A program made the translations under genes and the position numbers. Shown here in pieces: positions 2,724 to 33,645 of a stretch of 64,000 bases of DNA (positions are counted from its first letter, which is position 1; each line of letters starts with the position of its first letter). The notes beneath the pieces were generated by a model. The model had not been told where the DNA came from and did no database searches. It worked only from the letters and a program-made list of their open reading frames with translations. Source of the DNA: Rhodothermales bacterium (GTDB lineage: Bacteria > Bacteroidota > Rhodothermia > Rhodothermales > JAHQVL01); assembly GCA_965263205.1 (NCBI GenBank), contig CBDHHF010000026.1:155486-219485 (forward strand). The letters run 5' to 3'.

Positions 2724-2854
2724 CTATAGCAGGGCGTCCTGCACCCAACACCCCGAAACTGGCAGATTGCTGCGAAGAATGACACGGCATTTATCCAAGC
2801 TGCATCTTTCCAAACTGCATCTGCATCTTACCAAAGAAGTGAACCCCTAACATC

Positions 2855-3613
2855 ATGCTAGAGATCAAAAATCTCCGCGTTTCGATAGAAGACGAGAACA
2901 AAGAAATTCTTAAAGGCCTGAACCTCACGGTCAATGCCGGCGAAGTGCACGCCATCATGGGCCCAAATGGCTCCGGTAAAAGTACCCTGGCCTCTGTCCT
3001 GGCTGGTCGCGATGGCTATGAAGTGACTGAAGGCTCTGTGACTTTCCAGGATGATGATTTGCTAGAACTGGAAGCTGACGAACGCGCCCTCGAAGGACTC
3101 TTCCTCGCATTTCAGTACCCTGTTGAACTGCCCGGCGTCAGCATGTCCAACTTCCTCAAGCAGGCCATCAACGCACAGCGCGAACACCGTGGCGAAGAGC
3201 CCATCACGGCGATGGAATTCCTGAAACTGCTCAAGGAAAAGGCAGAAATGGTACATCTCGACCCTAACCTGAAAAAGCGTTCAGTCAACGAAGGCTTCTC
3301 GGGCGGCGAGAAAAAACGTAATGAAATTTTTCAGATGGCGATCCTCGAACCGAAGCTTGCCATCATGGACGAAACCGACTCAGGTCTCGATATTGATGCC
3401 CTGCGTATCGTTTCAGACGGCGTAAACCAGCTCCGCTCTGATGACCGCGCATTTGTAGTTATCACGCACTACCAGCGCCTTCTCGAATACATCGTGCCCG
3501 ATTTTGTGCACGTACTCGTTGACGGCCGAATCGTTAAATCGGGTGGCAAAGAGCTTGCCCTTGAGCTCGAAGAAAAAGGCTACGACTGGATCAAGGAAGA
3601 AGTCGTTGCTTAA
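2855..3613 (+). CDS. sufC: Fe-S cluster assembly ATPase SufC
   Basis: [31 protein letters not shown]. Confidence 0.97.
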
Positions 3614-3647
3614 TCGCTTGAACAACCCTAATCCCCAAATTGAATCC

Positions 3648-4976
3648 ATGAGTGTGATATCAGAACAAAAACTTCGCATGGAAGACCGGTTTCAGGCCAT
3701 GTTCGAGCAGCATAACGGACACGCGTTGAATGGTAGCAATGCTACCCTTTCAAACATCCGCCAGCAAGCCATAGAGGACTTCGCCAACGTGGGCCTTCCC
3801 CACCGTAAAACGGAAGCGTGGAAGTACACACCGATTGAAAAGGCCATCAATAAAGCGGTACAGATTCAGCTCCAGCCGGCGAAAAGTGAGTTGGGCGTTG
3901 CAGATCTCGCCCCGTATCAGATTCCAGCGCTCGACGTGTACCGCGTGGTTTTTGTAAATGGCCACATACAGCCAGCACTCGGTGACATCGCCGGCCTGCC
4001 TGAAACGGTTACACTAACGGACCTTTATTCAGCGTCCACTCAGCATGCATCGCTGCTTAACAAGCATTTTGCCCAGCATGCAGATTCAGCGTCAGAAGCA
4101 TTTGTCGCGCTTAACACGGCGTTTGCCAGAGATGGCCTGTTTCTTCACGTACCCGAGCGCGCTGTAGTCGACAAACCGATCCACGTGATTCATTTGTTCG
4201 ACGCCCCCAATGACCAGATGCTGCAGCCGCGCATGCTGTTTGTAGCAGAAGCCGGCAGCCAGGTAAAAGTGATCGAGAGCTACGCTTCGCTCGATTCTGC
4301 CGGCAGCACCTTTGTAAACGGCGTTACGGAATGGGTAGTTGAAACGCGTGCCCACGTCGATCACTACCAGTTGCAGGAATTTGGTACAGCGAGCACCGTT
4401 GTGTCAAACATCCACGCGCGTCAAGACAGTAACAGTTTCTTCAGCACACACACCACGTCACTCAGCGGCAAAATAATCAGAAACAACTTGACCATTGTGC
4501 CTGATGCTGAAGACTGTGAAAGCCACTTGTTTGGCTTTGTGCTGGGTAAAAACGACATGCATGTAGACAACCACACGCTGGTTGATCACCGCAAACCCAA
4601 TTGCTTCAGCAACGAACTCTACAAAAACATCCTTGATGATACCTCAACGGGTGTGTTCAACGGGAAGGTTTTTGTACGCCCAGATGCGCAGAAAATCAAT
4701 GCGTATCAGTCCAACAAAAGCATTACGCTCACGAAGAAGGCTAAAATGTATTCGAAGCCTGAACTTGAGATTTATGCAGATGACGTGCGCTGTAGTCATG
4801 GCGCCACCACCGGGCAGTTAGATGCTGATGCATTGTTTTATCTCAAAGCACGTGGTATTAGCGAAACCCAGGCGCGTTCACTCTTGCTCATGGCATTTGC
4901 CCGTGATGTAATTGACAACATCAAAATTGAGCCGCTGCGCGCGTTTGTTGACGAGAAAATTGCTGCGCGTCTGTAG
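3648..4976 (+). CDS. sufD: Fe-S cluster assembly protein SufD
   Basis: EAWKYT, KPELEIYADDVRCSHGAT; start placed at MSVISEQ. Confidence 0.95.
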   Translation: MSVISEQKLRMEDRFQAMFEQHNGHALNGSNATLSNIRQQAIEDFANVGLPHRKTEAWKYTPIEKAINKAVQIQLQPAKSELGVADLAPYQIPALDVYRVVFVNGHIQPALGDIAGLPETVTLTDLYSASTQHASLLNKHFAQHADSASEAFVALNTAFARDGLFLHVPERAVVDKPIHVIHLFDAPNDQMLQPRMLFVAEAGSQVKVIESYASLDSAGSTFVNGVTEWVVETRAHVDHYQLQEFGTASTVVSNIHARQDSNSFFSTHTTSLSGKIIRNNLTIVPDAEDCESHLFGFVLGKNDMHVDNHTLVDHRKPNCFSNELYKNILDDTSTGVFNGKVFVRPDAQKINAYQSNKSITLTKKAKMYSKPELEIYADDVRCSHGATTGQLDADALFYLKARGISETQARSLLLMAFARDVIDNIKIEPLRAFVDEKIAARL

Positions 4977-5044
4977 GACTGCTCGAGTGTCGAGCCGGCT
5001 ACTCCTTCCGATGCAACACTAAAGCTGTAACCAATCAACCTGCT

Positions 5045-6316
5045 ATGGCTGGTACTACCTTACATAGTACTCCTGCTGCTACTGACCATGCGGTCAAAGC
5101 GTTCGATATAGATAGGGTTCGGGCAGACTTTCCGGCATTGCACCAGGACGTGCATGGCCGGCCGCTCGTCTACCTGGACAATGGCGCAACTGCACAGAAG
5201 CCGCAGGTAGTTATCGACCGCATCCAGGCGTATTACGCCAACGAAAACAGCAACATCCACCGTGGTGTGCATTTTCTGAGCCAGCAAGCTACCGATGCAT
5301 ACGAGCAGGCGCGGGCTAAAATGCAGTGTTTCATCAATGCAGCACACGCCCACGAAGTACTCTACACGCGGGGGACGACGGAAGCAATCAACCTGATTGC
5401 TTCAACGTACGGCAGAAAGCACGTACAGGCCGGCGACGAGATTCTGATCTCGACCATGGAGCACCACTCCAACATTGTCCCCTGGCAGATGCTGTGCGAG
5501 GAGCAGGGTGCTACCCTGAAGGTAATCCCGATCAACGCGCGTGGCGAAATCGAATACGCGGCGTACCTCGACATGCTGACTGACCGCACCAAAATTGTAG
5601 CTGTGTGTCATGTCTCGAATACGCTGGGCACCATCAATCCGATTGCAAAGATGGCTGCTGCTGCGCACGCCAACGGCAGCGTAATTGTAGTAGATGGCGC
5701 CCAGGCTGCGCCCCATATGGCGATTGACGTCCAGGCGCTGGATGCCGATTTCTATGCGTTATCGAGCCACAAAATGTTTGGCCCTACGGGTGTTGGCATT
5801 TTGTATGGCAAAGAGGCGTTGCTCGACGCGATGCCCCCATACCAGGGCGGTGGTGACATGATCGACAATGTGTCATTCGAAAAGACAACGTACAACGCCC
5901 TCCCCCATAAGTTTGAAGCCGGCACCCCCAACATTGTAGGCGGTATCGCGCTGGGTACAGCGGTAGACTATGTCCAGCAGATTGGCTTTGACGCGCTGCA
6001 TGCTTATGAGACATCATTGCTGACCTATGCTACTGAAGCCTTGTTGTCCATTGATGATTTGCGCATCATCGGAACTGCCGAAGAAAAAGCCGGCGTGCTA
6101 TCCTTCCTCATTGGCGATATTCATCCCTACGATACCGGCACCATTCTCGACCAATTGGGCATTGCTGTCCGCACGGGACATCATTGTACACAACCCTTAA
6201 TGGACCATCTAGAGATCCCGGGTACAGCGCGGGCTTCCCTGGCGCTGTATAACAATGAAGCAGATATCGACCAACTCGTTGCCGGCTTGCATCGTGTAAA
6301 AAAGATGCTAGGCTAA
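5045..6316 (+). CDS. sufS: Cysteine desulfurase SufS
   Basis: YLDNGATAQKP, SSHKMFGPTG, RTGHHC. Confidence 0.96.
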   Translation: MAGTTLHSTPAATDHAVKAFDIDRVRADFPALHQDVHGRPLVYLDNGATAQKPQVVIDRIQAYYANENSNIHRGVHFLSQQATDAYEQARAKMQCFINAAHAHEVLYTRGTTEAINLIASTYGRKHVQAGDEILISTMEHHSNIVPWQMLCEEQGATLKVIPINARGEIEYAAYLDMLTDRTKIVAVCHVSNTLGTINPIAKMAAAAHANGSVIVVDGAQAAPHMAIDVQALDADFYALSSHKMFGPTGVGILYGKEALLDAMPPYQGGGDMIDNVSFEKTTYNALPHKFEAGTPNIVGGIALGTAVDYVQQIGFDALHAYETSLLTYATEALLSIDDLRIIGTAEEKAGVLSFLIGDIHPYDTGTILDQLGIAVRTGHHCTQPLMDHLEIPGTARASLALYNNEADIDQLVAGLHRVKKMLG

Positions 6317-6318
6317 CC

Positions 6319-6786
6319 ATGTCGGAGGTAACTATGGCAGATATTGCAGTAAAGGAAAACGAAATCATCGAAGAGTTTGGCTTCTTCGACGACTGGATGG
6401 GACGCTATGAGCACCTGATCGACATCGGCAGGGCCCTGCCCCCACTCGACCCATCGTTCGAAACAGACGAGTACAAAATTAAAGGCTGTCAGTCGCAGGT
6501 CTGGCTTCATGCCCGGCACGACGATAAGCAGGTATTTTTTGATGCAAACAGCGATGCAGCCATTACCAAAGGCCTTGTTGCACTGCTGGTACGCGTACTC
6601 TCCGGTCAGCCGGCGAGAGCAATTGTCAATGCCGACCTCGCATTTCTTGATCAACTAGAAATGAAAGAGCATCTGTCTCCTACCCGTAAAAACGGACTCG
6701 ATGCCATGATCAAGCAAATGAAAATGTATGCCATGGCGTTTGCCAAACTCGATGCTGGCAGCAAAACGCAAGAGACCTCTGCTTAA
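6319..6786 (+). CDS. sufE: SufE sulfur acceptor
   Basis: IKGCQSQVW, SDAAITKG, LSPTRKNG. Confidence 0.93.
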   Translation: MSEVTMADIAVKENEIIEEFGFFDDWMGRYEHLIDIGRALPPLDPSFETDEYKIKGCQSQVWLHARHDDKQVFFDANSDAAITKGLVALLVRVLSGQPARAIVNADLAFLDQLEMKEHLSPTRKNGLDAMIKQMKMYAMAFAKLDAGSKTQETSA

Positions 6787-19673: not shown

Positions 19674-21630
19674 CTATTCGTTGTCGAGCTTGAACTCGAA
19701 GAAGAGCGTATACCAGGACTTCACAGGCAAGCCACCAACGCGACCCGGCTCAAAACGCGCACCACGTATCACGCGCATCACTTCAGCATCCAAATCATGG
19801 CGCAGTCCTTTGAGGATTTGCGGGTTGATCATGCGTCCGGTTTCGTCTACAATCATCCGCACGGAAACGCGGCCTTCGATGCCGGCTTCCACAGCTTTTG
19901 GTGGATAACGGAGGCGTGACTGCAGCACTTCCCGTCCGCCCACAAGTACCGGTGCATCTTCGGTATAATTGTAGATGCCGTTGTCGTCAACCATGCCTTC
20001 AGGCAACTGGTTTTCCTCTTTTGCCAGGGCGCTAAGCGTTTCGTTGATTTCTTTTACCTTCTGGGAGGCATACACGTCATCAGGCTTGGCGATGAGGGCC
20101 GAGGTAAAGCTATCGAGTGCGCCAGCGTAGTCTTCTTTCTCAAGCAGCACTTCGCCACGGGTTTTATGGCTCAGATAATCTTCCTCTTTCTTCTGAATCT
20201 GATCGATCAGCGTATCAACTTCGAAGATGGCGTTGCGCGCGATCTGGCTGGTCTCGTTGAACTTAAGTGCTTCCTGGAAAGCCTCTTTGGCTTCTTCGAG
20301 CCGGCCGGCGTCTTTAAGCCGGAAACCCGAACTCATGTAATCCTTATAGCTGGATTCGCGCTGCGCCTGTGCGATACGCCTGTCAATCAATTCGATCCTT
20401 GACAGGGCATAATCATCGTCAGGCTTATAGATCAATGCTTCTTCAAATCTACCTTTGGCTTGCACGAGACTGTTGTTATCAAGCGCAGAATCACCCGCCA
20501 TTTTAAACTGAAGATACTGGCGCTGGGCACGTTCTTGCTCGGCATTCGCCTCGGCTAGCGTGGGTGCCGGCGGTTGCGCTACGCGAACCGGCGCTACCAT
20601 GCGCTGTGTCGCCTCACGAAGCCTTGCATTGGCAAGCGAATCATCAGGACGCACATCAATCACTTTCAGGTACTCTTCACGCGCTTGACGATACAGCAGG
20701 CGGGCTTCAACCGAGTCACCGACCATGTTCAGCGCATCCGCAGCATTCATCACGGAGTCACCACGTGAAATGAACGCCAACGATTCCCGGGCATCTAGCT
20801 CAAGGCGAACCGGTTCGTTGAGATACGCATCTACGTCTTGAATGCGCTGGCGTAGTTCCCGCTTGTCGCCATCACCAATCGTCAAGGCGAGGCTATAGTT
20901 TTCTTTTGCCCGTACAAAGAGTGACCGGGCGTTGTCCCAGTTGTCTGCGGCAAACTCCGTTTCCCCTAGCGTATACAACGAATCGCCTTTCAGGACGGCC
21001 ATTGCATATCCTGTTGTGCTTACGTCAAAATTGTTTGGCTCAACATTTTGCCAGCGTGTGTACATCAAATATGCCAACATGAACGTCGAGCCTACGAGTA
21101 GGCCCAAAATGGCACGCCGTATACCGTTTCCTGAACTTGCCGTTCTCCGCGGAGCGCTGTACTTGCGCTCATGCTCCCATTTTTCCTCTTTCACTGCTGG
21201 CGCAGCCCGGTCGTACACCGCAGGACTGCTTTCCTGGGCTGGCGTCGAGGGCACGGCAACGGGTGTAAACCCTGAGAACGTAGACTCAAACTGATTTCCG
21301 GCGCCGGTATCAAAAATACCGTGTCGATCAGCGAGCGGATCTTCAATAAACTCAGCTGCTATTCCCCCACTGTCGCCCGAACTCTCGCTATCGAGTTGCA
21401 GCTGCTCCATCTGTATCGGCTGGCGCGCCACGGGCATGGCGAGAGGATCATCCGCCATGTCGGCAGCAAAATGTACAGGTTCCTCTGGAATAGGATCAGG
21501 AGGTGGTGTATTTACCCGAGGTGCGGCAACATGCGAGCGCGGGTGAAACGCATCCTGGGCCGGCTCTTCAGGCGGCGGCACGTGTGCCCCCGGCAGGTCA
21601 AAGCCATCCACAAGCATCGCACGAAACGCT
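19674..21630 (-). CDS. C-terminal part of kinase-like fusion: Pro-rich linker, TM, TPR repeats, TonB C-terminal domain
   Basis: TM AILGLLVGSTFMLAYLM; TPR-like repeats; YPPKAVEAGIEGRVSVRMIVDETG and FEPGRVGGLPVK. Confidence 0.85.
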
Positions 21631-22464
21631 TCAATCGACTGGGGGCCGGCGCGTGATGTTCATATCGAGCGCCGCTTTGAGCGCGTTGCGCGTCCCGATC
21701 GAAAGATCAAACGATTGATCGATTTGTGCCGGGACCAGGTCTTCACGAAGCCGCGAAGGGACATCGGGAAGTCGCTGACCTGACAGCATCGTATAAAGTG
21801 TGGCACCACAGCCATACACATCTGACCACGGGCCATGTTTGCCACGGGGCGTGTATTGTTCGGGTGGTGAAAAGCCCGGCTGCTGGAAAGAAACGAGGTT
21901 TTGCGTTTTCTGCGCGAGCAACAGATGCGTCGTTTTGAACGACAGGAGCATGGGCCGGCCCGACTTGGTCAGGTAGATTTTCTCTGGAGAAATGGCACCA
22001 TGCACAAGCCCCTGGGTGTGTCCAGCACGGACACCATCCATGAGCGGCATTAATATCGTAACGGCTGTACGCGGAGACACTTTGCCGCCCTGTTGTTCGA
22101 GGACGTAAGCAAGCGATGCGCCAGCATGGTAGTCGAGGATTCTGTAAACCGTACCGTTTTCGCGGAAGAATTCGCGTTCTTTCACCACGTTAGGATGATC
22201 AATACGGGCACACAATGCGGCTTCCTTGGCAATTTTCTCAAGGCCGTATTGATACATTTCGTCCGCTTCCGGCGCAGTAGGCATCAATCCGACGCCTTTA
22301 GCGTCCCGTTTTGCGATGCCGGCCGGCAGATATTCACGGACAATGACCTGCTCTTCGTTCTCCAGGTCCCAGGCCAGATAGGTCGCTTCGAAAGGACCCA
22401 GGTCTCCCAGGACATTTCTAATAGCAAACCGCTCTTTTAGCACTGTGAGACGTGGCAGCTCCAT
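21631..22464 (-). CDS. Ser/Thr kinase-like (pseudokinase) domain; frameshifted into the downstream ORF at a C5 run near 21643
   Basis: HPNVV, GFSPPEQY, WSDVYGCGATLY retained; catalytic motifs altered; removing one C gives RRPQSIEAFRAMLVD, continuous with 19674..21617. Confidence 0.8.
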   Translation of the reverse strand: MELPRLTVLKERFAIRNVLGDLGPFEATYLAWDLENEEQVIVREYLPAGIAKRDAKGVGLMPTAPEADEMYQYGLEKIAKEAALCARIDHPNVVKEREFFRENGTVYRILDYHAGASLAYVLEQQGGKVSPRTAVTILMPLMDGVRAGHTQGLVHGAISPEKIYLTKSGRPMLLSFKTTHLLLAQKTQNLVSFQQPGFSPPEQYTPRGKHGPWSDVYGCGATLYTMLSGQRLPDVPSRLREDLVPAQIDQSFDLSIGTRNALKAALDMNITRRPPVD

Positions 22465-22795
22465 TGCTCTTCGTGAACTCCGTTAACCTGTGGTGTATTA
22501 GCGATAAACCGCGTTTTCGAGATCGATAGGGTATTTGGGAAGAATCGCTAAGGATACAAATTGCTTATCGAACAATTTGTTCTCAGAAAAGACAGCACGA
22601 TACAAAAAAAGCTACTGAAATCCTGTACAAAAAACCCAATAAAAATGAAAAAACCTTGAAGCGCGGTGGGGTTCCTATAGTTGTATTGTATTGAATGGGG
22701 GCTTCAAACGTTGTGAACAAACAAGTGCACGGTGTACATAACCAGGTACGTTACGCCATTTTGTCTCCAAAGATTTTCGGGCTCCTCCGGGCTGC

Positions 22796-23722
22796 TTACC
22801 CCCTGCGCTCCGCTACGGGGTCGCCGCCGCCCTCCCTGACTCCGTCCTGAACTCGGGCACAACGGAAACCAAGGTCGTTGTACCGGTCGCCAGGGGTGTT
22901 GACGATGCGGCACGCTGCACGCACGTAACGCGCGTCGTCGAGCCAGCTACCACCACGCCTAACCCGGTCGGGGCCCTCTTCTGGCCCCGTTGGATCGAAC
23001 GCGGCCTCACTGCCAAGATCCTCTAACCACCAATCTGCGCACCATTCCCACACATTTCCCAACATATCATATAACCCCCACGGATTAGCCTTCTTTTGGG
23101 CTACCGGGTGCGTTCCCGCTTTACTGTGATCATATTGTTTCTCTGACCAACCTGAAGAATCGGATCCATTGTCCAGGTCAAAATCCACACCGCTGTTCCC
23201 CCCGTACCACGCGATATCATCAAGCACTGGTGCATTGTTTGCTCCTTTGAGGTCAAGGTCGCCGGCATAAGTAGCCGCCACGGTACCAGCCCGGCAAGCG
23301 TACTCCCATTGCGCTTCCGTAGGAAGCACCAAACCGAGCCCGGGTATTTCGCCATTCAAGGTGTTGATAAATGCACTGCTATCCTCCCAGCTCACATTCT
23401 CCACTGGGCGATCCGGGCTCTTGAATCTGCTCGGATTATTCCCCATTACGGCTTCCCACAAGCGCTGCGTAACCGGCGTGTCGAACAGCCAGAAACCACG
23501 CGTAAGTGTAACCTGGTGTTGCGTTTCTCGACCATACCGTCCTGCCTCACTTTCCGGAGATCCCATCATGAACTGCCCCGGTGGAATCCATCGCATACGC
23601 TGCTCAACCTCACGGAAACGGAACACAACCCATATTCCGTATTCATCCTGCCCCCAACCAGAGGCCCAATCAGGTGGACATCCTGTGACCAAGGGGTGGC
23701 TTATTTTTTCTTCAAGTATCAT
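22796..23722 (-). CDS. DGR target 1: FGE-sulfatase/C-type lectin-fold protein with C-terminal VR
   Basis: FMMGSP, LPTEAQWEYACRAG, NPWGLYDMLGNVWEWC, RGGSW...GFRC; start MILEEK; no signal peptide. Confidence 0.93.
   Translation of the reverse strand: MILEEKISHPLVTGCPPDWASGWGQDEYGIWVVFRFREVEQRMRWIPPGQFMMGSPESEAGRYGRETQHQVTLTRGFWLFDTPVTQRLWEAVMGNNPSRFKSPDRPVENVSWEDSSAFINTLNGEIPGLGLVLPTEAQWEYACRAGTVAATYAGDLDLKGANNAPVLDDIAWYGGNSGVDFDLDNGSDSSGWSEKQYDHSKAGTHPVAQKKANPWGLYDMLGNVWEWCADWWLEDLGSEAAFDPTGPEEGPDRVRRGGSWLDDARYVRAACRIVNTPGDRYNDLGFRCARVQDGVREGGGDPVAERRG
22852..22976 (-). repeat. DGR variable region VR1
   Basis: 125-nt ungapped match to TR with 14 mismatches, all at TR adenines (T on + strand). 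Confidence 0.95.
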
Positions 23723-23735
23723 CGCGTTGCGAAAA

Positions 23736-23785
23736 AGGCTGTTCCGGTGAGTTTTCTCTCGATGGATACTCACACACCGGAAGCC
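23736..23785 (-). other. Stem-loop in the spacer downstream of TR (candidate DGR RNA structure)
   Basis: Minus strand GGCTTCCGGTG-TG-TGAGT ... ACTCACCGGAACAGCC can pair. Confidence 0.55.
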
Positions 23786-23858
23786 GATTGCTGTTTGCCG
23801 CACAAAGCGGACAGGATAAAGACCGGTTCAGGAAAGAAGCATCCACTCCATGCATGAG

Positions 23859-23983
23859 CTCGGGCACAACGGAAACCAAGGTTGTTGTTCCGGTTGCCAG
23901 GGGTGTTGTTGTTGCGGTACGCTGCACGCACGTTACGCGCGTTGTTGTTCCAGCTACCACCACGCCTAACCCGGTTGGTGCCC
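23859..23983 (-). ncRNA. DGR template repeat (TR)
   Basis: Would read [41 protein letters not shown]; 12 AAC codons; 22 nt downstream of the RT stop; three copies elsewhere differ at its adenines. Confidence 0.95.
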
Positions 23984-24004
23984 ATACGGTCCATACCCTT
24001 TTTG

Positions 24005-25018
24005 TTAAACCTCTTCTGTAAAACAAAAGTTTTGCGCGTGAACGCCCTGCCTGAAGGATACTGCATCAGCATGCGCCGTGACAGAAAAGGCTGCCGCGTA
24101 GCCGAGCTGCAACTTAGACGCGTCAATCCAGCCTTGCTGAAAGGCATTTTCCCATTTTTTCCAGGCTTTTTTATACCGCTTTTTTCTGCGCCGGCTCAAA
24201 TGAATGGCGCCGGGCAAAACCCGGAAACCGCAAAAGGGCAAGCCGTATCGGCTACGCTGTATACGCGGGTAATTTTTGATCTCCAGGGCGAGGTTTTGAA
24301 AGAGAAAGCCGCTTGCCTTATCGAGCGTATCTCTGGCCGCTTGCTTATCCTTACACCACCATACGACGTCGTCCATGTAGCGCACAAATCCTGAAACTTT
24401 GCACGTTTCCAGCAAGAACCTGTCTAGGCCCGTCAGATAGTAGTTTGCAAAGTTTTGAGACGTTAATGCCCCGATAGGCAGTCCACAACCGGGTTGAACA
24501 TGATAACTATCGATGATTCGGTTGCAAAGGCGAAGCATGCCCCGATTCTTCAGCTTCCTTGCCAGCAGCATTTTGAGAATTTCATGGTCGATACTGTCAA
24601 AATAGCGCGAAATGTCTATTTGCACGTACCAGGGAAAACGCTGTAGATGATGCTGCGCCCGCTTGACTGCGCGCACAGCGCCTTTGTTTTTCCTGCACGC
24701 ATAACTATCGAAAATTGCAGCGCGCTCCAGTATGGGGCCGATGTGATATATAAGCGCATGATGCAGCACACGCTCGCGAAATGACGGTGCACTAATTTCC
24801 CGCGGCTTCGGATCATAAACCCGAAAAGTATTGAACGCTCCCAGATCTAACGTCTCATGTAAGATATCGTGGGAAAGCCTGTGTAGCTCCTGCTCCAGAT
24901 TCGCCTCAAACTGCTTTACTTCCAGGCGATCACGTTTACCGCGCGCTGCACGCCAGAACGCATAGTTTAGCGTGTTGTAATCGGCCACTTCTGCCAGGCT
25001 GACGGCGCTCCTTTTCAT
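24005..25018 (-). CDS. DGR reverse transcriptase
   Basis: [40 protein letters not shown] (DGR-type GxxxSQ), RYMDD; 337 aa with no maturase or endonuclease domain. Confidence 0.95.
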
Positions 25019-25509
25019 GTTGGCACACCATCCCTTACGGGCACACCATCCGTTACTGGCTGCAATTTCTCTTGTTCTGCCTCTATCAGCTTCAGAAACG
25101 GATCTCCGTACTTTTCCACCCTCGTAGATCCGATGCCCTTGATTTTACCAAGCTGGGCTTTGCTTTTCACCTGCTGCCTCACCATCTCAGCCAGTTGTTC
25201 GTTGGTAAACAGCGCATACGCCGGCACGCCCTCCTTTTCTGCCATGTCTTTGCGCAATGCTCTCAACACCGCGTACATCTTAAAATCCTGCTCACTCAAA
25301 ACTTCTTTATAATCAATCTTACCCTTTCGAACAGGCGCCTTTTCGCTCATTTCCGTCCAGGTGACACAAAAAGTCCACGCGCTATCCAGCCCGGCATCTA
25401 CAAAGCGTTTCTCCACAGAAACAATGCGATGGCCGCTCAGAAAGCTATTCAGTTCATGTTCAAGGCTTGGGTCGCCGTGAATGGGGATGGTAAAAATGCG
25501 AATTTTCAT
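25015..25509 (-). CDS. HRDC-domain DGR accessory protein
   Basis: LRALRKDMAEKEGVPAYALFTNEQLAEM...IKGIGSTRVEKYG; GGAGG RBS before MKIRIF; 4-nt overlap with RT. Confidence 0.88.
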   Translation of the reverse strand: MKIRIFTIPIHGDPSLEHELNSFLSGHRIVSVEKRFVDAGLDSAWTFCVTWTEMSEKAPVRKGKIDYKEVLSEQDFKMYAVLRALRKDMAEKEGVPAYALFTNEQLAEMVRQQVKSKAQLGKIKGIGSTRVEKYGDPFLKLIEAEQEKLQPVTDGVPVRDGVPT

Positions 25510-25581
25510 GGCTTCCTCCCTCGGCGGCTTGCTCCCCTGCGCTCCGCTACGGGGCCGCCGCCTTCCCGACTCCGTCCTGAA

Positions 25582-25710
25582 CTCGGGCACAACGGAAACC
25601 AAGGTGGATGTACCGGTTGCCAGGGGTGTAGGCGCTCGCGGTACGCTGCACGCACGTCAGTACGCGCGTCGTTGAACCAGCTACCACCACGCCTAACCCG
25701 GTCGGTGCCC
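25582..25710 (-). repeat. DGR variable region VR2 (C-terminal FGE domain of the large target)
   Basis: Matches TR with about 11 substitutions at TR adenines plus 1-nt and 3-nt insertions. Confidence 0.9.
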
Positions 25711-26632
25711 TCTTCTGGCCCAGTCGGATCGACAACCATGTTGTCGCCTAGATCTTCCGTCCACCTATCTGCGCACCATTCCCATACATTACCCAGCATG
25801 TCGTACAGACCCCACGGATTCGGCTGCTTTGCGGCTACCGGGTGCGTTCCTGCTCTACTGTGATCGTATTGTTTCTGTCGACCAATCTGAAGAGTCGTAT
25901 CCATCTTCTAGTTCAAAATCTACACCGCTATTTCCCCCGTACCACGCGATATCATCAAGCACTGGTGCATTGTTTGCTCCTTTCAAATCAAGTTCGCCGG
26001 CATAAGTGGCCTCTTGTGTGCCCGCCCGGCAAGCGTATTCCCATTGTGCTTCGGTTGGCAGCACCAAACCAAGTCCAGGCATTTCGCCATTCAACCTCTC
26101 GATAAACGCAGTTGCTGTCATCCCAGTTCACCTGCTCCACCGGGCGATGCGGACTTTTGAATCTGCTCGGATTATTCCCCATTACGGCTTCCCACAAGCG
26201 CTGCGTAACCGGCGTGTCGAACAACCAGAAACCACGCGTAAGTGTAACCTGGTGTTGCGTTTCTCGACCATACCGTCCTGCCTCACTTTCCGGAGATCCC
26301 ATCATGAACTGGCCCGGCGGAATCCAGCGCATACGCTGCTCAACTTCACGAATACGAAACGAGGACCAGAGTCCGAATCGATCCCGCCCCACAGCATCAG
26401 CCCAATCGGGTTTCGTCATAGAGGAAAGCGTCAGCATGCCCTGGTCAGATTGCAATTGGATGCGCCGGCCCTGCGGCACGGCAAGCGAAATAGGCTGTTC
26501 GGGTTGGATCGTGTATTTGGTGCCGTGTTATTTCAAAGCGGGCCGGTTCGCCGGCTGCGGGAGCTTCGATCGGCTCCGCATCCGCTCCGCCGTCTCCGCC
26601 CGCAGGCTTCCTGTAGCTCATGCTTTCCTGAA

Positions 26633-26760
26633 CTCGGGCACAACGGAAACCAAGGAGGCTGCTCCGGTAGCCAGGGGTGTTGAAGTGGCTGCGGTACGCT
26701 GCACGCACGAAACGCGCGCCGTTGATCCAGCTACCACCACGCCCAACCCGGTTGGTGCCC
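26633..26760 (-). repeat. DGR variable region VR3 (internal FGE domain)
   Basis: Matches TR with about 14-15 substitutions at TR adenines and one extra NNC codon in an AAC run. Confidence 0.9.
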
Positions 26761-29154
26761 TCTTCTGGCCCAGTCGGATCGACAACCATGTTGTCGCCTA
26801 GATCTTGCGCCCACCAATCTGCGCACCATTCATCGACGTTGCCCAACATGTCGTACAGTCCCCACGGATTGGCCTTCTTTTGGGCTACCGGGTGCGTTTG
26901 GCTATCGCTGTTGGGACCATACCAAGCAATATCGTTTAGCACGTTCAACTCCTTCTCATATTCCAAATCACCGGCCCAAGTGGCCCATGTGGTTCCTGCA
27001 CGGCAGGCGTACTCCCATTGCGCTTCAGTGGGAAGTTGACTAAATTCGAGGCCCGGCATTTCGGCTATTCAACTTTTCTATAAATGCATTGGCATCCTCC
27101 CAGCTCACCTGCTCCACGGGCCTGTCAGCGCCTTTAAAGTTACTCGGATTTTCGCCCATCACGGCTTGCCAGAGTGCCTGGGTAACTGGCGTATCAAAAA
27201 GCCAATATCCCCGTGTCAGGACAACCTCGTGCTGCCTGCTCATCGCTCCCATCTGCCGATTTCCGTTTCAGGTGAGCCCATAGTAAACTGGCCCGGCTCG
27301 ATGTAGCGCAATCGCTGCTTTACATTTCCATATTCTAACGTAGCAGCGACACCATACTCGTCCTGCTCAAACGAGGCTGCCCAGGCGGGGCGGGTCATGT
27401 GCTCTCTGAATTGCCGGCCTGTTGCGGCATCTATCGCAACAGTAACGAGGTACCCTTCGGATGCACTCATTTCTTCTCCAACGGCATGCAGAAACGGCCT
27501 TGTCGAGCGTAGTAAAGCTACAGGAGATGCTGTATTTAATGCTGTTGTGGGAAGCTGTTGCGCTAGTTCCTTGATCGTAAACGTATCACCCGTCTGGTAA
27601 ATGGACCAGACGCGTTCGGGGCCGGCGTCGCCGTCTCGCCGCGGGTCGTAGCCGGCGGCGGTTTCAACCATGATGTCAGTCTTGTAAACCAGCGCATCTG
27701 TCTGCTGCAATTCTTGGCTCAATTCAGGCGTATTTCTCCATAACCCTGCGTTGAAATGTGCGTCCGCGTCTTGAAGCGTTTGAACCAGGCATACATCGCC
27801 GCTACATAACTCGGATCTACCTGGGCTTCCGAGCTACGCAACGTTTGCGCGATCTTGCGCAGGTCTTCAATTGCAGCACGCCTTTCATCCTCCGGAAACT
27901 GCTTCAGATCCTCTGCAGGCAGATTGAGCAGCTCTTCATACCAGATTTCTTTGGGGAGTGATTTATGCCATTGCTGAATGGCTTCATAGATTTTCCACCT
28001 GAGCGCGTCATCTTCTTGACCAAATCGCTCGCGCAACTCCTGCAGGGCATCCGGAGATATGGTGAGCGCTACGGATGATCCACTGGCGATATCGGGGTGC
28101 GACCAGACATCCGATTCTGTGCCTGCATCCGCCTCGCCCGGAGGCAACAGCCTTCGAATGGTACGCAGCAGGCCCGGTTCTACCCGGCTGGCATAAGAAA
28201 CCAGGCTCAACAGGCGTTCCGCACGTTTGGTAAGCTCGTCTCCGCTCCTGCTGTTCTCCGCAGTTGCTGATCGCTCCCAGTGCGCCATTTTGCAGGCAAC
28301 ACGTAATGGAACCGGCCACCGGCTTACCGGGGCGGGGACCATAGCCACCAACCTTCCGCCGGCTGCTTCCATGTTCTGCGCCAGATGGTACCACGCACGC
28401 ATGAGGGGTTTGTATCCTGTCAGACCGCCGCAATCTCCCAACACGAGTGTCGTTTCCGAGATGGTGATTTTCTTGCTGCGTCGTCGCCCCTTCCCCATGG
28501 GCATCGGATTGATCAACCCGTCGAAAACCCGGAACTCGTGCACGTTGTTTTTGCCCAGCCAGTGTTTAAGCCGGCGAATCACTTTGTCCTGGTCCTGCCA
28601 GAAAGGCGTTAATCGACGGCTACGGTCAACGATTACGTTGAGCCGGCGTGGCCAGCGTTTCCGATTCCGGAACGGAAGCGTGCGGGGCATACGGCCGCGA
28701 CACATATCACGAACCAGTACATCCACGTCCAGATTTCGACTCTGGGCGTCCTGAACGAGCAGCCGCGCGACCCGACGTTGCAAACGCGGCCAGGTAGCCA
28801 GCACCGGAGTTTCAGGCGTGAGCATTTCTCCAACAGGCGTGCGCTCCGTGAGCTCTGACATGGTGTAGGCTATCACTGGTTGCGGCGGCGGCTCTCGCTC
28901 ATCTTCCTCTCTAGACGGCTCGAATGCCTCAGCAAAGAAAAACGGCAGCGGCGCCCAGTCTAAACGCGACACCTGTGGTTCGAATGGTTCTGGCTCCTTC
29001 TCCACCTCAGTACGTTCCTCGCTCATGTGCTGCTCTTCAGCACTTTTCCCTTTAGGGCGTGCAACAACGTAATAGCCGGCGAGGTCGGCCAGTAAATCTT
29101 CTCGTTCGCCGGTTGCCAGCATTCGAACCAGGTCTGCGCGTCCACAAAGCGGCA

Positions 29155-30108
29155 TCAGGCCTCCGGGTGTTTCTTGAGCATGAATTGCTGGATACGCTCG
29201 AGCAAGTCAAGCTGCGTGTCTTTGGTTTTCGCCTGCTCGGTCACCGCCCGTACCAGATCCAGATACTCAGCCAGACCGGGCGCAGCCAGATCCATACGCC
29301 GCCAATACTCGCGATCTTTGCGAACCTGTCTGGCGGCTTCGTCGAGCACGTTTTTATCCACGTCTGGAAAGTGTTTTTCACCGCGACGCACCAGGAATTG
29401 CTCCAACGCTTCGCCTTCCTCCAGTTTCAGATGCAACACGAGACAGCGGCGTAAAAAGGCATCCGGCAGGGCCCGCTCTTCGTTGGTCGTGATTACAACA
29501 AGCAGGGGTTTGTCGCTTCTTTCGACGGCCTCATTAATGCCGGCTGGTTGAAAACGGCCGCTGCCAAAAGCTTCGAGTAAGCCATTGGGAAGGTCGACAT
29601 CAGCTTTGTCTATCTCATCAATGAGCAACACACACCCATTCTGCGGCTCGCCGCCATCCTGTTGCAACGGCGGTTCTACCCCAACCATTTCTGCCTGTTT
29701 TAGCGCCGAGTTCCAGTCAAATGCCCACCAGATTGGACCCGGGTGAATAAAATTCTTTTCAGCGAGTAAGGCACGTACCTCTTTTTCGTCTTCCTTTTTC
29801 AGTACGGCGGCGATTTGTGCTTCACCCAAACGGGTGACGGCATCCAACCGGTAGAGCAGATCAACAGCTTCGCTTCGGGCATCGATTGTGCAGGGAATGA
29901 GACCCCACCCCAGCGCCTTTGCCGCGGCCCGCGCCAGCTGCGTTTTCCCCGTCCCGGGCTCTCCACGTACCAACAAAGGCCGTCGAGCCGCAATGGCTGC
30001 GTTGACCGCGTCGATGGAATCCTGGTCGAAGACGTGCACCTGCTCAGGCGCATTGCCAACAACAGGCAGGTCGATGGTTGCGCCATTTTCGATGTTAAGG
30101 TAGATCAT
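29155..30108 (-). CDS. MoxR-family AAA+ ATPase
   Basis: RPLLVRGEPGTGKT, LLIDEIDKAD, ITTNEERALPDAFLRRC. Confidence 0.93.
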   Translation of the reverse strand: MIYLNIENGATIDLPVVGNAPEQVHVFDQDSIDAVNAAIAARRPLLVRGEPGTGKTQLARAAAKALGWGLIPCTIDARSEAVDLLYRLDAVTRLGEAQIAAVLKKEDEKEVRALLAEKNFIHPGPIWWAFDWNSALKQAEMVGVEPPLQQDGGEPQNGCVLLIDEIDKADVDLPNGLLEAFGSGRFQPAGINEAVERSDKPLLVVITTNEERALPDAFLRRCLVLHLKLEEGEALEQFLVRRGEKHFPDVDKNVLDEAARQVRKDREYWRRMDLAAPGLAEYLDLVRAVTEQAKTKDTQLDLLERIQQFMLKKHPEA

Positions 30109-31379
30109 TTTTTAGCCTCCTCTTTCCTGGCTGCCAGTATCGCTCTCAATGGCCTGGCCAGCCTGCGTTCGTCCGGTAGTAGATTCGGATCGTCTTGCAA
30201 AACGACAAATGTAATCTGGGGGTAAACGCTCCTAAGCGTGTCAATTTGCTCCATTTGTTCGCCAATAACCTGCTGATCAAGAATTAAATAGTGACGGTGT
30301 GAATCTTCCCCCCCAAGCTCCTCTGCGATCCATGCCAGTGCATCGTTTATGAGCTGGCGCGAGACGATGATATTTTTGCTTCTATCTTCTGAATCTACAT
30401 ATTTCTCGATCAGGAATTGATCAAAGGCAGCCACCATACCCTGTTTAGGATCGCTGAACCCCATTTCAGGTGGCTCGTCGAGCAAGGAGCGACCCACGGG
30501 CCAGCTGCTACCGTCTAACGGCTCGCGATACAGGGCAGGACGCTTGCCCACCGCCGCCATAACAATCTCTGCAACCGTTTTGGTTTTTACTGGAAGCTGC
30601 ACAAAGGTGCTATTCATCAGCTCAGCATGCACAGAATCAACAGTATCCTGATCGTAGAGTATTGGTAACATAACATTGAGTACCTGCTGCAAATTGCCCA
30701 GGCTATGTTCATCGTCGGCAGCAATAGCCTTGAATACTTTAAACGCGATTTTCTCAAAAACACCAATCTCCGTTTGCCAGAGCCGGTCGACAATTTTTTC
30801 AACGCGCTGGGTCGGATCGGCGACGTTCAATTCCGCCCCAAAGGCTGCGGCGAGATTCTCAGCAGAAGCAAGCAAGTCGATGACCTCAGCCAGGGCACTA
30901 CCGTCGTTAGAGATTTTCCCCATCTGGCTATTCTGCCACTGCTGCAAAGCCCCTTCAACATCTTCTACAAGCTTGACCCATATAGCATCACGTTCTCCAG
31001 GTCTTTGATCCCTTAACGGGCGTGTAGGATTGTTGACTGACATGAACCTTGCGAGTTCAGACTGCTTAAAACGGCATGTTGACACGATCACTGGCAAAAT
31101 TACAACGCCGCGATCCTTGCTAGCATCCAGAAGTGCAGGCAATTCATATCGATAGATATAATCGGAAGCAAGGAAGCCAGGACTAACCAATAAGATAGCC
31201 ACACAACAGTCATTCAAAGCAGCTAAAATCTCTTCATGCCACTCCTGGCCGGCCTGTATCCGCGTGTCATCCCAGACATCAATATCTTCCGTCCGAATAA
31301 CAGGCTTTAGATGCGTCTGTAATTCACCTAAATACCTTTTGTCGTTATGACTGTAACTAATGAATACTTTTTTCGCCAT
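30105..31379 (-). CDS. TIR-domain protein with uncharacterised C-terminal region (third component of the MoxR-vWA system)
   Basis: VFISYSHND, WDDTRIQAGQEW..EI, LLVSPGFLASDYIYRYEL; 4-nt overlap with the MoxR gene. Confidence 0.88.
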   Translation of the reverse strand: MAKKVFISYSHNDKRYLGELQTHLKPVIRTEDIDVWDDTRIQAGQEWHEEILAALNDCCVAILLVSPGFLASDYIYRYELPALLDASKDRGVVILPVIVSTCRFKQSELARFMSVNNPTRPLRDQRPGERDAIWVKLVEDVEGALQQWQNSQMGKISNDGSALAEVIDLLASAENLAAAFGAELNVADPTQRVEKIVDRLWQTEIGVFEKIAFKVFKAIAADDEHSLGNLQQVLNVMLPILYDQDTVDSVHAELMNSTFVQLPVKTKTVAEIVMAAVGKRPALYREPLDGSSWPVGRSLLDEPPEMGFSDPKQGMVAAFDQFLIEKYVDSEDRSKNIIVSRQLINDALAWIAEELGGEDSHRHYLILDQQVIGEQMEQIDTLRSVYPQITFVVLQDDPNLLPDERRLARPLRAILAARKEEAKK

Positions 31380-32018
31380 GAGCGTAGCGGATATAATAGA
31401 ACAGATTTCTCTTCCCTCTGGAAGGTATGATTTTAAAATACCTTAGGTTTCTAGACAAAAATCAGTCACAATAACAAGAAGGGGAATTCAGAGCATGCCA
31501 GTCGTTTTATTTCTTGTGTGGGGGCAACACGCGTTCTTTCAATTCAAGTCGCCAAGAATATTGTACAGAGGTAGCATGGATAGGCTCGCATATGAATTAC
31601 AGAATTCATCCCTACTATTAAACCTTTATTAACGATATCTAAGCTAAATAAATAGCCAAAACAGTATGCTCATGCAATCAGATGATTTATCCAATCATAC
31701 AAATTGATGACATGAAATTTTTTCTCCTACAAGACAATAATTTCCTTTATGCAAGTAGTCTACTTCCGAGCCATTATCACTGACTTGTGTAAGCCATTAC
31801 AAAGTAGTCGTATCCATTACGCTTCCTTACCCTAAGCTACCGGATATTATCCCCTCTTTAACCAACTCTTCGCCGCATTCGGGGCTGTCTATATATAGCT
31901 TTTAATAGACAGATTACCCTTGATACTGACGAAGATCCAACCTGACTTGTCATCGCCGTAGTTTTTTCCTTTAATCATTCTCATCACTACAACGCTATAA
32001 CTAGAACACGCAGTATAA

Positions 32019-33056
32019 ATGGACATATTTATTTCGCACGCTAGCGAAGACAAGGATGATTTTGTGAGGCCGCTCGCTAATGAACTTAGAAGGAGAGGGG
32101 TTCAGGTGTGGTATGATGAGTATTCATTGACGATAGGTGATCGACTCCGCCATTCGATAGTAAAAGGATTACAAACATCGAGATTTGGTGTCGTCATTTT
32201 TAGCAAGCATTTCTTCAGGAAGAAGTGGCCACAGCTAGAACTAGACGGCTTAGTCACACTGGAAGAGGATCGAAGAAAAGTAATATTACCAGTATGGCAC
32301 GGCGTATCCTTTGACGAAGTGGCAGCATTCTCGCCAATATTAGCAGATAGAATTGCAATTAGCTCAGAACTTGGTATCCAAACCGTTGCAGATAAAATAG
32401 AACAAGTATTACGAAATGAAGAGTCCCACAATCATGATTTAAATCAGTCTTCCTCAGTTACCCCAAAAGATCATGCCCCAACGTCTACAAATCGGAAGGC
32501 AGTACTGCTCTGGGGACTGGTTATAGCCTCAATGGTCACAGGATTGTTATTCCTGCAAAGTTTTAACAAAAGAGGCCCAAAAGAATCTGATTTAAGCTGG
32601 TCTTTGATTTCAGACGGGGAAATAATGGGCCGAGTAACGCAGTATGGTGGAGGTGGTAAAAACTTCAGCGGTATTGCATACCGTTATGATGAAGTGGAAT
32701 TCCAGGTTACCAATACGAGCAAAAAAGACTTACAGTTGAGCGCTTTGGCTTTTTGGGCTACTGCGAATGACAGTGTGATTGCCAGTGGAAATACTCGTAT
32801 AGAAAGAGAAATTTCGAAGATCCAGCCAGGTCAATCAGAGTTATTCCTGGAATCTATTCCTATTCACAGAGTAGATGAACACCCAGAATTCAATCGCTTT
32901 CTACTTGACTACAGATTAGAAGCGGGTGACTCCCACATAGCTGATTTTGGCGCAATTGCGTTATACTTGTTGTATGTAAATGAAGTGGGCAAGCGGGACT
33001 CTATTCAATTAAGTAATCGTCTCTTGAATAATATAGAGATTCCTCTAGAATTTTGA
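32019..33056 (+). CDS. TIR domain - transmembrane helix - extracytoplasmic domain protein
   Basis: DIFISHASEDKDDFVRPLA, WYDEY, KKWPQLELDGL; TM AVLLWGLVIASMVTGLLFL. Confidence 0.87.
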   Translation: MDIFISHASEDKDDFVRPLANELRRRGVQVWYDEYSLTIGDRLRHSIVKGLQTSRFGVVIFSKHFFRKKWPQLELDGLVTLEEDRRKVILPVWHGVSFDEVAAFSPILADRIAISSELGIQTVADKIEQVLRNEESHNHDLNQSSSVTPKDHAPTSTNRKAVLLWGLVIASMVTGLLFLQSFNKRGPKESDLSWSLISDGEIMGRVTQYGGGGKNFSGIAYRYDEVEFQVTNTSKKDLQLSALAFWATANDSVIASGNTRIEREISKIQPGQSELFLESIPIHRVDEHPEFNRFLLDYRLEAGDSHIADFGAIALYLLYVNEVGKRDSIQLSNRLLNNIEIPLEF

Positions 33057-33197
33057 TGTATGCATGAGTATCTACCAACCAGCACACTTGATGCAATCAT
33101 GTTTGCAAATGTTGGTTAGAAAGTGCCGTGTTTTCCAGCACCCAATCGAGCACCCACAAAATTTCTGTGACACCTAACCCCCCCCCCCTAAAAACAC

Positions 33198-33223
33198 CAA
33201 AAGCCCGCCTTTTCAGGCGAGCT
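33198..33223 (-). terminator. Probable terminator after the tRNA pair
   Basis: AAGCCCGCCT-TTTC-AGGCGAGCTT hairpin with T-run on the minus strand. Confidence 0.55.
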
Positions 33224-33299
33224 TGGTACCGCGTACGGGATTTGAACCCGTGTTACCGGCGTGAAAGGCCAGCGTCCTAGACCCCTAGACGAACGCGGC
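33224..33299 (-). tRNA. tRNA-Glu (TTC)
   Basis: GCCGCGT acceptor stem, anticodon loop CTTTCAC, GGTTCAAATCC, encoded CCA. Confidence 0.95.
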
Positions 33300-33306
33300 A
33301 TTGTAG

Positions 33307-33381
33307 GGTGATCGAGGGGATTTGAACCCCCGACCTCCAGGGCCACAACCTGGCGCTCTAACCAACTGAGCTACGACCACC
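33307..33381 (-). tRNA. tRNA-His (GTG)
   Basis: G-1, AGCTCAGTTGGTTAGAGC D-arm, TTGTGGC anticodon loop, GGTTCAAATCC. Confidence 0.95.
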
Positions 33382-33645
33382 ATGTACAAGCCCTGTTACA
33401 AGGCCGTTCCCAACTGAGTTGCAGAATATAGGAAAAACAGAATAGCGTTCAAATGAACTTTCTATGCATGATTTCCAGCTTCTGCGGTCAAATAACAGTA
33501 GAGAACTCACACTTGCTTCGGTGTCATAAAAACACCGTAACGAGTGCCTCTCTTTTTTCAGAGGAGACGTAAACTACCATTGTACTATTCGGTTCCAAAT
33601 TCCTGTACAAGTTTCGCCTCCCCTTTACCCGGCGTGCTCAGACAA

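Follow-up and report, generated by a model that had tools for sequence, protein, structure and literature searches.

In Bordetella phage BPP-1, the diversity-generating retroelement (DGR) is arranged as mtd-avd-TR-brt, in which TR is the template repeat, and the 3′ flank of the variable repeat (VR) differs from that of the TR (initiation of mutagenic homing site, IMH, versus IMH*). Here we analyzed a DGR in a 64,000-nucleotide (nt) stretch of the genome of a Rhodothermales bacterium (contig CBDHHF010000026.1 of assembly GCA_965263205.1, positions 155,486 to 219,485), called the window below. The element is a classical DGR, with a reverse transcriptase (RT), an HRDC-domain accessory protein, TR/VR pairs that differ at adenines only, and targets of the FGE-sulfatase/C-type-lectin kind. 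It probably diversifies three lectin domains in two proteins, within a MoxR/vWA "ternary" conflict-type cassette. It resembles BPP-1 in bearing the marks of adenine-specific mutagenic retrohoming from a TR to a VR in the 3′-terminal part of a gene for a C-type-lectin fold. It differs in being chromosomal rather than phage borne, in having HRDC in place of Avd, a TR downstream of the RT, and three VRs, and in that its targets are cytoplasmic multidomain proteins, whereas that of BPP-1 is a tail-fiber protein.

Doré et al. (2024, PNAS; PMC10907252) described DGR "clade 5A" loci, typified by Thiohalocapsa PB-PSB1 DGR 8, which have a second, short lectin-only target, and TIR or trypsin-like effectors in neighboring genes. 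Searches with the RT of the window yielded 22 related loci, 14 of which extend 5 kb or more upstream. The order MoxR-like gene, target with an N-terminal domain (N-domain) and lectin, HRDC gene, RT, TR, and short target was found in 12 of these 14 relatives, the exceptions being L009 and L020, and the window and these 12 have the gene order of clade 5A as given in the portion of that paper used here. The window differs in that its long target has two tandem lectin domains, each bearing a VR, as do those of 4 of the 12 relatives. In the same portion, tandem VR-bearing CLec domains are reported for clade 5B (DGR 4/5) and not explicitly for clade 5A itself, and VRs belonging to a single locus are said to differ in activity. 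We infer the match to clade 5A from gene organization, not from a place in the RT tree.

Kaur, Burroughs, Iyer, and Aravind (2020, eLife; PMC7159879) described MoxR-vWA-VMAP ternary systems in which the vWA component is fused to DGR-diversified FGS domains and the third protein has a variable N-terminal effector head. As those systems are outlined in the excerpts available, the window resembles them in its AAA_5 protein, in a target N-domain that models as vWA-like (Z 9.2), and in a TIR-headed third protein, whose C-terminal module is common to trypsin- and phosphoesterase-headed homologues. It differs in that none of its cassette proteins has a Pfam vWA or VMAP match and in that the motif resembling a metal site (metal-ion-dependent adhesion site, MIDAS) is degenerate.

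In the survey of Wu et al. (2018, NAR; PMC5758913), HRDC stood in place of Avd in 14 of 372 DGRs ("architecture C," the Treponema denticola type), about 15% of DGRs had more than one target gene, and one lectin target had three VRs. The present locus likewise has an HRDC accessory gene and multiple targets and VRs. It differs in the order long target, HRDC gene, RT, TR, short target, and its link to MoxR and TIR genes lies outside the description given in the cited part of that survey.

The system is thus not novel but a member of a described DGR class that occurs together with a MoxR ATPase and a TIR protein. An earlier reading of the window made from its letters alone (the original prediction) was right to see a DGR here. 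What the window contributes is one more clean, complete DGR in a MoxR/TIR conflict-type cassette, in which the RT, the HRDC gene, and the TR are intact and none of the three VRs has a change at a non-adenine position, and the occurrence of the same cassette in metagenome-assembled genomes (MAGs) labeled as many different phyla. Going beyond the cited portions of these papers, modeling gives the long target's "domain-less" N-terminal extension a divergent fold of the vWA-like kind, in which the metal-site motif is degenerate; such a fold would align these loci with canonical MoxR-vWA pairs.

Adenine-only variation in three copies of one template repeat

The TR (positions 23859-23983 of the window; all features lie on the minus strand unless stated otherwise) is a non-coding sequence of 125 nt (31 A, 38 C, 37 G, and 19 T) that starts 21 nt downstream of the RT stop codon. 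We compared it with the VRs by formal local and global alignment. VR1 (22852-22976, 125 nt), at the 3′ end of the short target, has 14 substitutions and no indels, and 14/14 substitutions are at TR adenines. VR2 (25582-25710, 129 nt), which closes lectin domain 2 of the long target, has 11 substitutions, 11/11 at TR adenines, as well as 3 additional nt (CTG) and a single added base that causes a frameshift inside the repeat. In VR3 (26633-26760, 128 nt), which closes lectin domain 1, 13/13 substitutions are at TR adenines, and one extra codon (3 nt) is present in a run of AAC. The 94 non-adenine columns are unchanged in each of the three VRs (0/94). When the TR is read in the VR1 frame, against the VR1 translation, it contains 12 AAC codons. 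Over the entire genome (6.5 Mb, 39 contigs), a search with the TR retrieved four copies in all, with E values from 2.5e-67 to 6e-40.

From an alignment done by hand, the original prediction had proposed one TR and three VRs with adenine-only substitutions and named a formal alignment as the check. This picture was borne out: mismatches at non-adenine positions as frequent as those at adenines were not seen. The 14 of 14 mismatches at adenines given for VR1, the approximately 11 given for VR2, and the twelve AAC codons were all recovered, and for VR3 the restriction to adenines held, with a count of 13 instead of 14 to 15. The indels in VR2 (+3 and +1) and VR3 (+3) had gone unmentioned, and the peptide quoted for VR2, WFNDARTDV..YTPGNRYIH, proved to be spliced from two frames across the added base.

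The TR and the VRs also differ at their 3′ boundary. After GTGCCCGAG all three VRs read TTCAGGA and the TR reads CTCATGC, and in the relatives L014, L019, L025, and L005 a GCTC in the TR is opposed to GTTC or GGTC in the VRs. Judged from sequence, this difference appears to be of the type that gives retrohoming its direction. An Rfam scan of positions 21000-33500 at E <= 0.1 found two tRNAs only, the TR matching none of the RNA families.

Overwriting of the VRs from the TR came later than the divergence of the lectin paralogues, because the non-adenine columns are identical to the TR at 94/94 positions in all VRs, in contrast to the diverged flanks. We denote as T1 the short target (target 1) and as T2 and T3 the lectin regions that carry VR2 and VR3. 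In the 60 nt upstream of the VR, T1 is identical to T2 and to T3 at 41/60 positions each, and over 150 nt it is 75-77% identical to the other two; the upstream flanks of T2 and T3 (60-150 nt) are 85-95% identical, and downstream of the repeats, the flank of VR3 is about 50-59% identical to the others. The original prediction had taken near-perfect identity at non-adenine positions as a sign of recent retrohoming, and the contrast between 94/94 in the VRs and 68-77% in the flanks supports homogenization by the TR after divergence of the paralogues.

Could the repeats be alike without retrohoming, through gene conversion or a recent duplication, with the adenine pattern a coincidence? Recombination does occur here, as the lectin paralogues have a mosaic structure: a stretch of ~200 nt near the 5′ ends is nearly identical in T1 and T2 (23440-23590 versus 26170-26330), and T2 and T3 have 57 of 60 nt in common just upstream of their VRs (25711-25770 versus 26761-26820), a sign that the targets undergo gene conversion as well as retrohoming. 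Ordinary recombination, though acting among the paralogues, cannot account for the adenine-only pattern. Pooled over the three VRs, 38/38 substitutions fall on the 31 TR adenines and 0 on the 94 other positions; Fisher tests of adenine against non-adenine columns gave p values of 5e-8 to 2e-10 across the VRs (2e-10 for VR1). Furthermore, the non-coding TR adjoins an intact DGR-type RT, and the same adenine pattern is present in relatives. The column alignment comes close to refuting an origin without retrohoming, which we find scarcely credible.

The RT (24005-25018, 337 amino acids [aa]) is intact, matches Pfam RVT_1 (1.2e-13), and has LPIGALTSQ and YMDD in its translation, the combination of [I/L]GxxxSQ and YxDD being what we take to be the hallmark of DGR-type RTs. 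The gene for the HRDC-domain accessory protein (25015-25509, 164 aa; Pfam HRDC, 5.1e-17) lies directly upstream and overlaps the RT gene by 4 nt; an HRDC gene is found just upstream of the RT in 21 of the 22 related loci. In a cluster look-up, the RT shared its cluster with one 156-aa fragment. Its best relative in a metagenome scan was 74% identical, on a 1.6-kb contig, and the others were at most 57% identical, while an RT at 36-40% identity was present in 5 of 40 related genomes (two from the same genus, five from the same family, and 33 from the same order). The short, lectin-only target (22796-23803, 335 aa from a GTG, intact) matches the FGE-sulfatase family PF03781 at 3.4e-46 over residues 69-317. 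Its conserved part begins near an ATG at 23722, and an equivalent short target follows the TR in relatives.

Because of established DGR biology, we infer that the RT and its HRDC partner would copy the TR transcript into cDNA, misincorporating opposite adenines, and that the cDNA would replace its 125-nt homologue, the VR, with which each of the three C-type-lectin-fold (FGE-sulfatase) domains ends on the 3′ side. The DGR is presumably active at present. With twelve AAC codons, each open to 15 residues and to no stop, up to about 1e14 peptide variants could arise per VR, a figure that had been calculated correctly in the original prediction.

The long target, its N-domain, and the MoxR/TIR cassette

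Upstream of the HRDC gene, the assembled sequence breaks up into short open reading frames (ORFs) whose frame keeps changing. Comparison with homologues indicates that VR2 and VR3 belong to one gene together with the 478-aa ORF at 27719-29155, and not to two separate genes. This long DGR target (25547-29155, ~1200 codons) would encode the vWA-like N-domain, a linker, lectin domain 1 with VR3, a second linker, and lectin domain 2 with VR2. The 478-aa ORF, which corresponds to the N-domain and has no Pfam family, had 1616 homologues at E <= 1e-3. Among the 149 non-self matches listed, 98 were at least 800 aa long and 34 were of 1100-1300 aa, and it was their first ~470 residues that were matched. 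We checked with Pfam the long homologues among the best 42 matches (30 proteins, leaving out the query itself and eleven of less than 690 aa) and found a C-terminal FGE-sulfatase domain in 29/30, with two matched stretches in 9, eight of which have 1105-1213 aa.

When seven homologues were aligned by tblastn with positions 25300-29300, the matches were collinear from 29158 to ~25510, through the 478-aa ORF, T3, and T2, and the VR2 and VR3 domains matched the lectin domains of the homologues. P0002, the closest homologue among the matches listed, with 45% identity over the N-domain, aligned with lectin domain 1, crossed the linker, and continued into lectin domain 2, with no gap along the way. 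In four relatives, the N-domain and two lectin domains are encoded in a single open frame (1194 aa in L005, 1182 aa in L010, 1200 aa in L014, and 1205 aa in L025), and the 3.6 kb from 29155 to 25547 fit this two-lectin form. Eight other relatives have the N-domain and one lectin domain, in single frames of 894-998 aa in five of them and in shorter or ambiguous frames in L018, L021, and L023. The three VRs of the original prediction thus lie in two genes, one for a short target and one for a long target with two lectin domains.

An arrangement of three target genes, with T3 and T2 each carrying its own VR and the 478-aa ORF coding for a separate protein, is in our judgment unlikely. The assembled sequence has stops between the pieces, one at 27719 and another, a TAA at ~26530, just past the start of the linker between the two lectin domains and in the reading frame of the second; this TAA counts against a single gene and makes separate genes for T3 and T2 possible. 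The 478-aa ORF is moreover present as such in a public protein collection, and more than one target is found in about 15% of DGRs, as the cited part of the survey of Wu et al. (PMC5758913) has it. Nevertheless, the lengths of the listed homologues, the lectin domains in nearly all of the long ones tested, the gapless alignment with P0002 all the way from the ORF, and the four relatives with one frame of 1182-1205 aa argue for a single gene. In addition, a contig from another sequencing run (X1, described below) lacks the two bases at 27757 that divide the ORF from T3.

In the public collection, the 27719-29155 ORF appears as a protein of 478 aa in its own right, from a single contig of 290,939 nt, and it is alone in its cluster; public annotation probably carries the same frame break, hiding the long DGR target. 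None of the 8 proteins compared with NCBIfam, the 478-aa ORF included, matched a model at the cut-off. The N-domain protein was not found in the 40 related genomes, and as their RTs are only 36-40% identical, these genomes provide no orthologous locus for a check of the frame.

An AlphaFold2 model of the N-domain based on 61 sequences had a mean predicted local distance difference test (pLDDT) score of 85.4 and a predicted template modeling (pTM) score of 0.79. A Foldseek search of the PDB with this model gave no match at E <= 1e-3, and its best rows had TM scores below 0.2; the weak rows include the NorD vWA domains of NorQ-NorD complexes. In a VIA-align comparison with 48,161 chains, the top three matches were the vWA domains of TEM8, CMG2, and ANTXR2 (Z 9.2, 9.2, and 8.6), aligned over 116-121 residues with root-mean-square deviations of 3.0-3.8 and falling within model residues 165-296. 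At least a dozen more vWA/I-domains are among the best 50 rows, together with other Rossmann-like folds at Z 7-8. According to the model, a vWA-like alpha/beta core (~165-296) would thus be followed by a helical part (303-442), which resembles STAND/MalT arms (Z 8.1-8.4).

Conserved residues of the N-domain include D177 (61/61 sequences), S179 (51/61), an R or H at position 181 (60/61), and D241 in "LGDLG" (61/61). The D177/S179/D241 pattern resembles a degenerate MIDAS motif; the canonical motif has a second Ser where the N-domain has Arg or His. From the model, we lean by a little toward a cryptic vWA-like domain in the N-terminal extension, which would fit the MoxR-like neighbor of the long target.

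That neighbor is a MoxR-like AAA+ ATPase (29155-30108, 317 aa), which matches Pfam AAA_5 (5.3e-10) and, below the curated cut-off, bpMoxR (0.0025). Homologues with 36-59% identity are encoded at the equivalent position in 12 relatives. The gene upstream of the ATPase codes for a TIR-headed protein, the probable effector component (30105-31379, 424 aa; Pfam TIR_2, 2.4e-14, residues 5-114; PADLOC ThsB-like, 3.8e-24). Its C-terminal ~260 aa match 3 of 9 proteins encoded upstream of MoxR in relatives (L005, 1.8e-35; L016, 2.3e-8; L010, 1.6e-7). The heads of these nine proteins are Trypsin_2 in three, TIR_2 in one, and Metallophos with PNP_UDP_1 in one, and none was recognized in the other four. 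Swappable heads on a common C-terminal module suggest the pattern of an effector-bearing third component.

The related loci are found in MAGs labeled Deferribacteres, Phycisphaerae, Acidobacteriota, Chromatiaceae, Magnetospira, Burkholderiales, Desulfosarcina, and Pseudodesulfovibrio, among others. In PADLOC, the N-domain and target 1 had no match, and the other proteins had only generic TIR, kinase, and RT matches. By analogy with the described systems, the hypervariable lectin domains may bind unpredictable ligands as sensors, and the MoxR-like ATPase may couple the vWA-like sensor to the TIR effector.

Frame breaks in the long target

The reading frame of the long target changes seven times in the window, near 27757, 27240, 27055, 26543, 26112, 25880, and 25630, and each break is explained by extra bases (2, 2, 1, 1, 1, 1, and 1, respectively). 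X1 is another sequencing run with the same organism and sample label as the best-matching run, available as contigs only, at about 2x. Its contigs are without the extra bases at 27757 (2 bases), at 27246 and 27236 (1 each), and at 27066, 26109, and 25879, which amounts to five of the seven break sites, and the contig over 25954-26186 is identical to the window over its 232 nt apart from the extra base. X1 also agrees with the window at 100% over VR1, target 1, the TR, and the 3′ end of the RT, VR1 being in a contig that covers 22849-23114.

Translation and tblastn revealed no nonsense codons inside the segments of correct frame, and each segment has 45-64% similarity to P0002. No split domains were detected by Pfam in 40 other ORFs of the window, with matches in 24/30 and 9/10 of them, arguing that the assembly is not error rich in general; errors would be local to this repeat-rich, possibly heterogeneous stretch. 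As the extra bases are gone at five of seven sites in X1, a local assembly error is likelier than decay, and we consider it rather likely that the breaks arose in this way, or at least that an intact allele exists in the same sample.

Several observations weigh against this interpretation or against our reading of the locus as a whole. The evidence on the state of the breaks comes from low-depth contigs, not from reads. The breaks at ~26543 and inside VR2 are without evidence from X1 contigs, by which the VR2 and VR3 parts are barely covered. Over 27202-27800, the pieces from X1 are 4-8% diverged from the window and may come from a related strain, not from the same one. The breaks are confined to one gene, unlike what random error predicts, and there are 0 indels inside the VR among seven TR/VR pairs of five relatives. 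To these must be added the cassette proteins in which Pfam recognized neither vWA nor VMAP, and the hairpins downstream of VR1 and VR2, which fold no better than shuffled sequences: the two 3′ flanks have in common a pairing-capable GC-rich CCCCGTAGCGGAGCGCAGGGG, with DNA folding z scores of -0.6 and -1.4 versus shuffles. The 3′ flank of VR3 has a different, stronger fold (z -2.6).

A rival explanation is that the long target is a genuine pseudogene, with real insertions, so that only the VR1 target is functional and VR2 and VR3 are remnants that encode nothing, although they may still receive cDNA. In its favor, all seven breaks are in one gene and none of the 40 other ORFs is split, X1 is shallow, partly diverged, and may represent another strain, one break is inside VR2, and the indels of VR2 and VR3 are not seen in the VRs of relatives. 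Degenerate DGR loci also occur in Thiohalocapsa, according to the consulted portion of Doré et al. (PMC10907252). We nonetheless regard a pseudogene as doubtful, since the extra bases are missing from X1 at five of seven sites, in one case from a contig otherwise 100% identical to the window. Furthermore, a gene with extra bases only, no nonsense codons, and such similarity to P0002 in every segment is unlike the product of long decay, and the repeats (three paralogous lectin domains and four TR/VR copies) are where consensus building fails. Programmed frameshifting and an alternative genetic code were rejected, as the shifts are mixed +1 and +2, the sequences at the breaks are unrelated, and other genes are normal in table 11.

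It is also conceivable, if improbable, that the extra bases are real and that a two-lectin sensor gene was switched off by a burst of small insertions, one of them inside VR2, with codon-length changes in VR2 and VR3. DGR cDNA synthesis or integration would then also make length changes, by slippage on AAC runs, and cells could silence a hypervariable sensor that does them harm, with both the retroelement and the short target left active.

Under the preferred explanation, a local assembly error, the locus carries a warning, also beyond the cited portions of the papers: DGR targets that are repeated and hypervariable can be assembled wrongly and end up in the annotation as a set of short genes, the instance here being a 478-aa "hypothetical" protein plus fragments. 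In the related loci L023 (8082-8911 and 10885-11819) and L026 (10001-10991), from MAGs labeled Planctomycetaceae and Pseudodesulfovibrio, the match to lectin targets or to the RT is divided into two pieces that overlap, in a frameshift-like manner. Breaks in DGR genes, or errors in the assembly of DGR repeats, may therefore be common.

Neighboring genes and related elements

At a distance from the DGR, the suf operon (SufB, SufC, SufD, SufS, and SufE; 1263-6786, plus strand) is complete, with full-length Pfam matches, and shows that the assembly is not generally frame-shifted. Directly downstream of target 1 lies a gene for a Ser/Thr protein kinase (21631-22464, 277 aa) that resembles the PD-T4-6 and mad6 defense kinases (7e-23). 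It is probably not a member of the cassette, as it has no homologue in the 22 related loci.

On the other side of the cassette, a second TIR-domain protein is encoded on the plus strand (32019-33056, 345 aa) in divergent orientation, with PADLOC matches to PDC-S66 (3e-58) and ThsB-like (1.2e-35); from its sequence it is possibly a separate defense gene beside the DGR cassette. Just past the TIR genes are two adjacent tRNA genes (33227-33380; 68 and 60 bits), and the GC content is 0.45-0.46 over 30-34 kb versus about 0.52 elsewhere. Because of the adjacent tRNAs and this dip in GC content, the DGR/TIR block may be part of an island inserted next to the tRNAs.

Three further runs (X2-X4) had small shares of matching sequence, mostly pieces 90-95% alike from related elements. 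Contigs at 23742-24233 from X2, which is of the same sample, and from X3, a seagrass metagenome, are 90-97% alike over the TR and the end of the RT, with differences both within the TR and next to it. It appears that these habitats contain closely related DGRs side by side.

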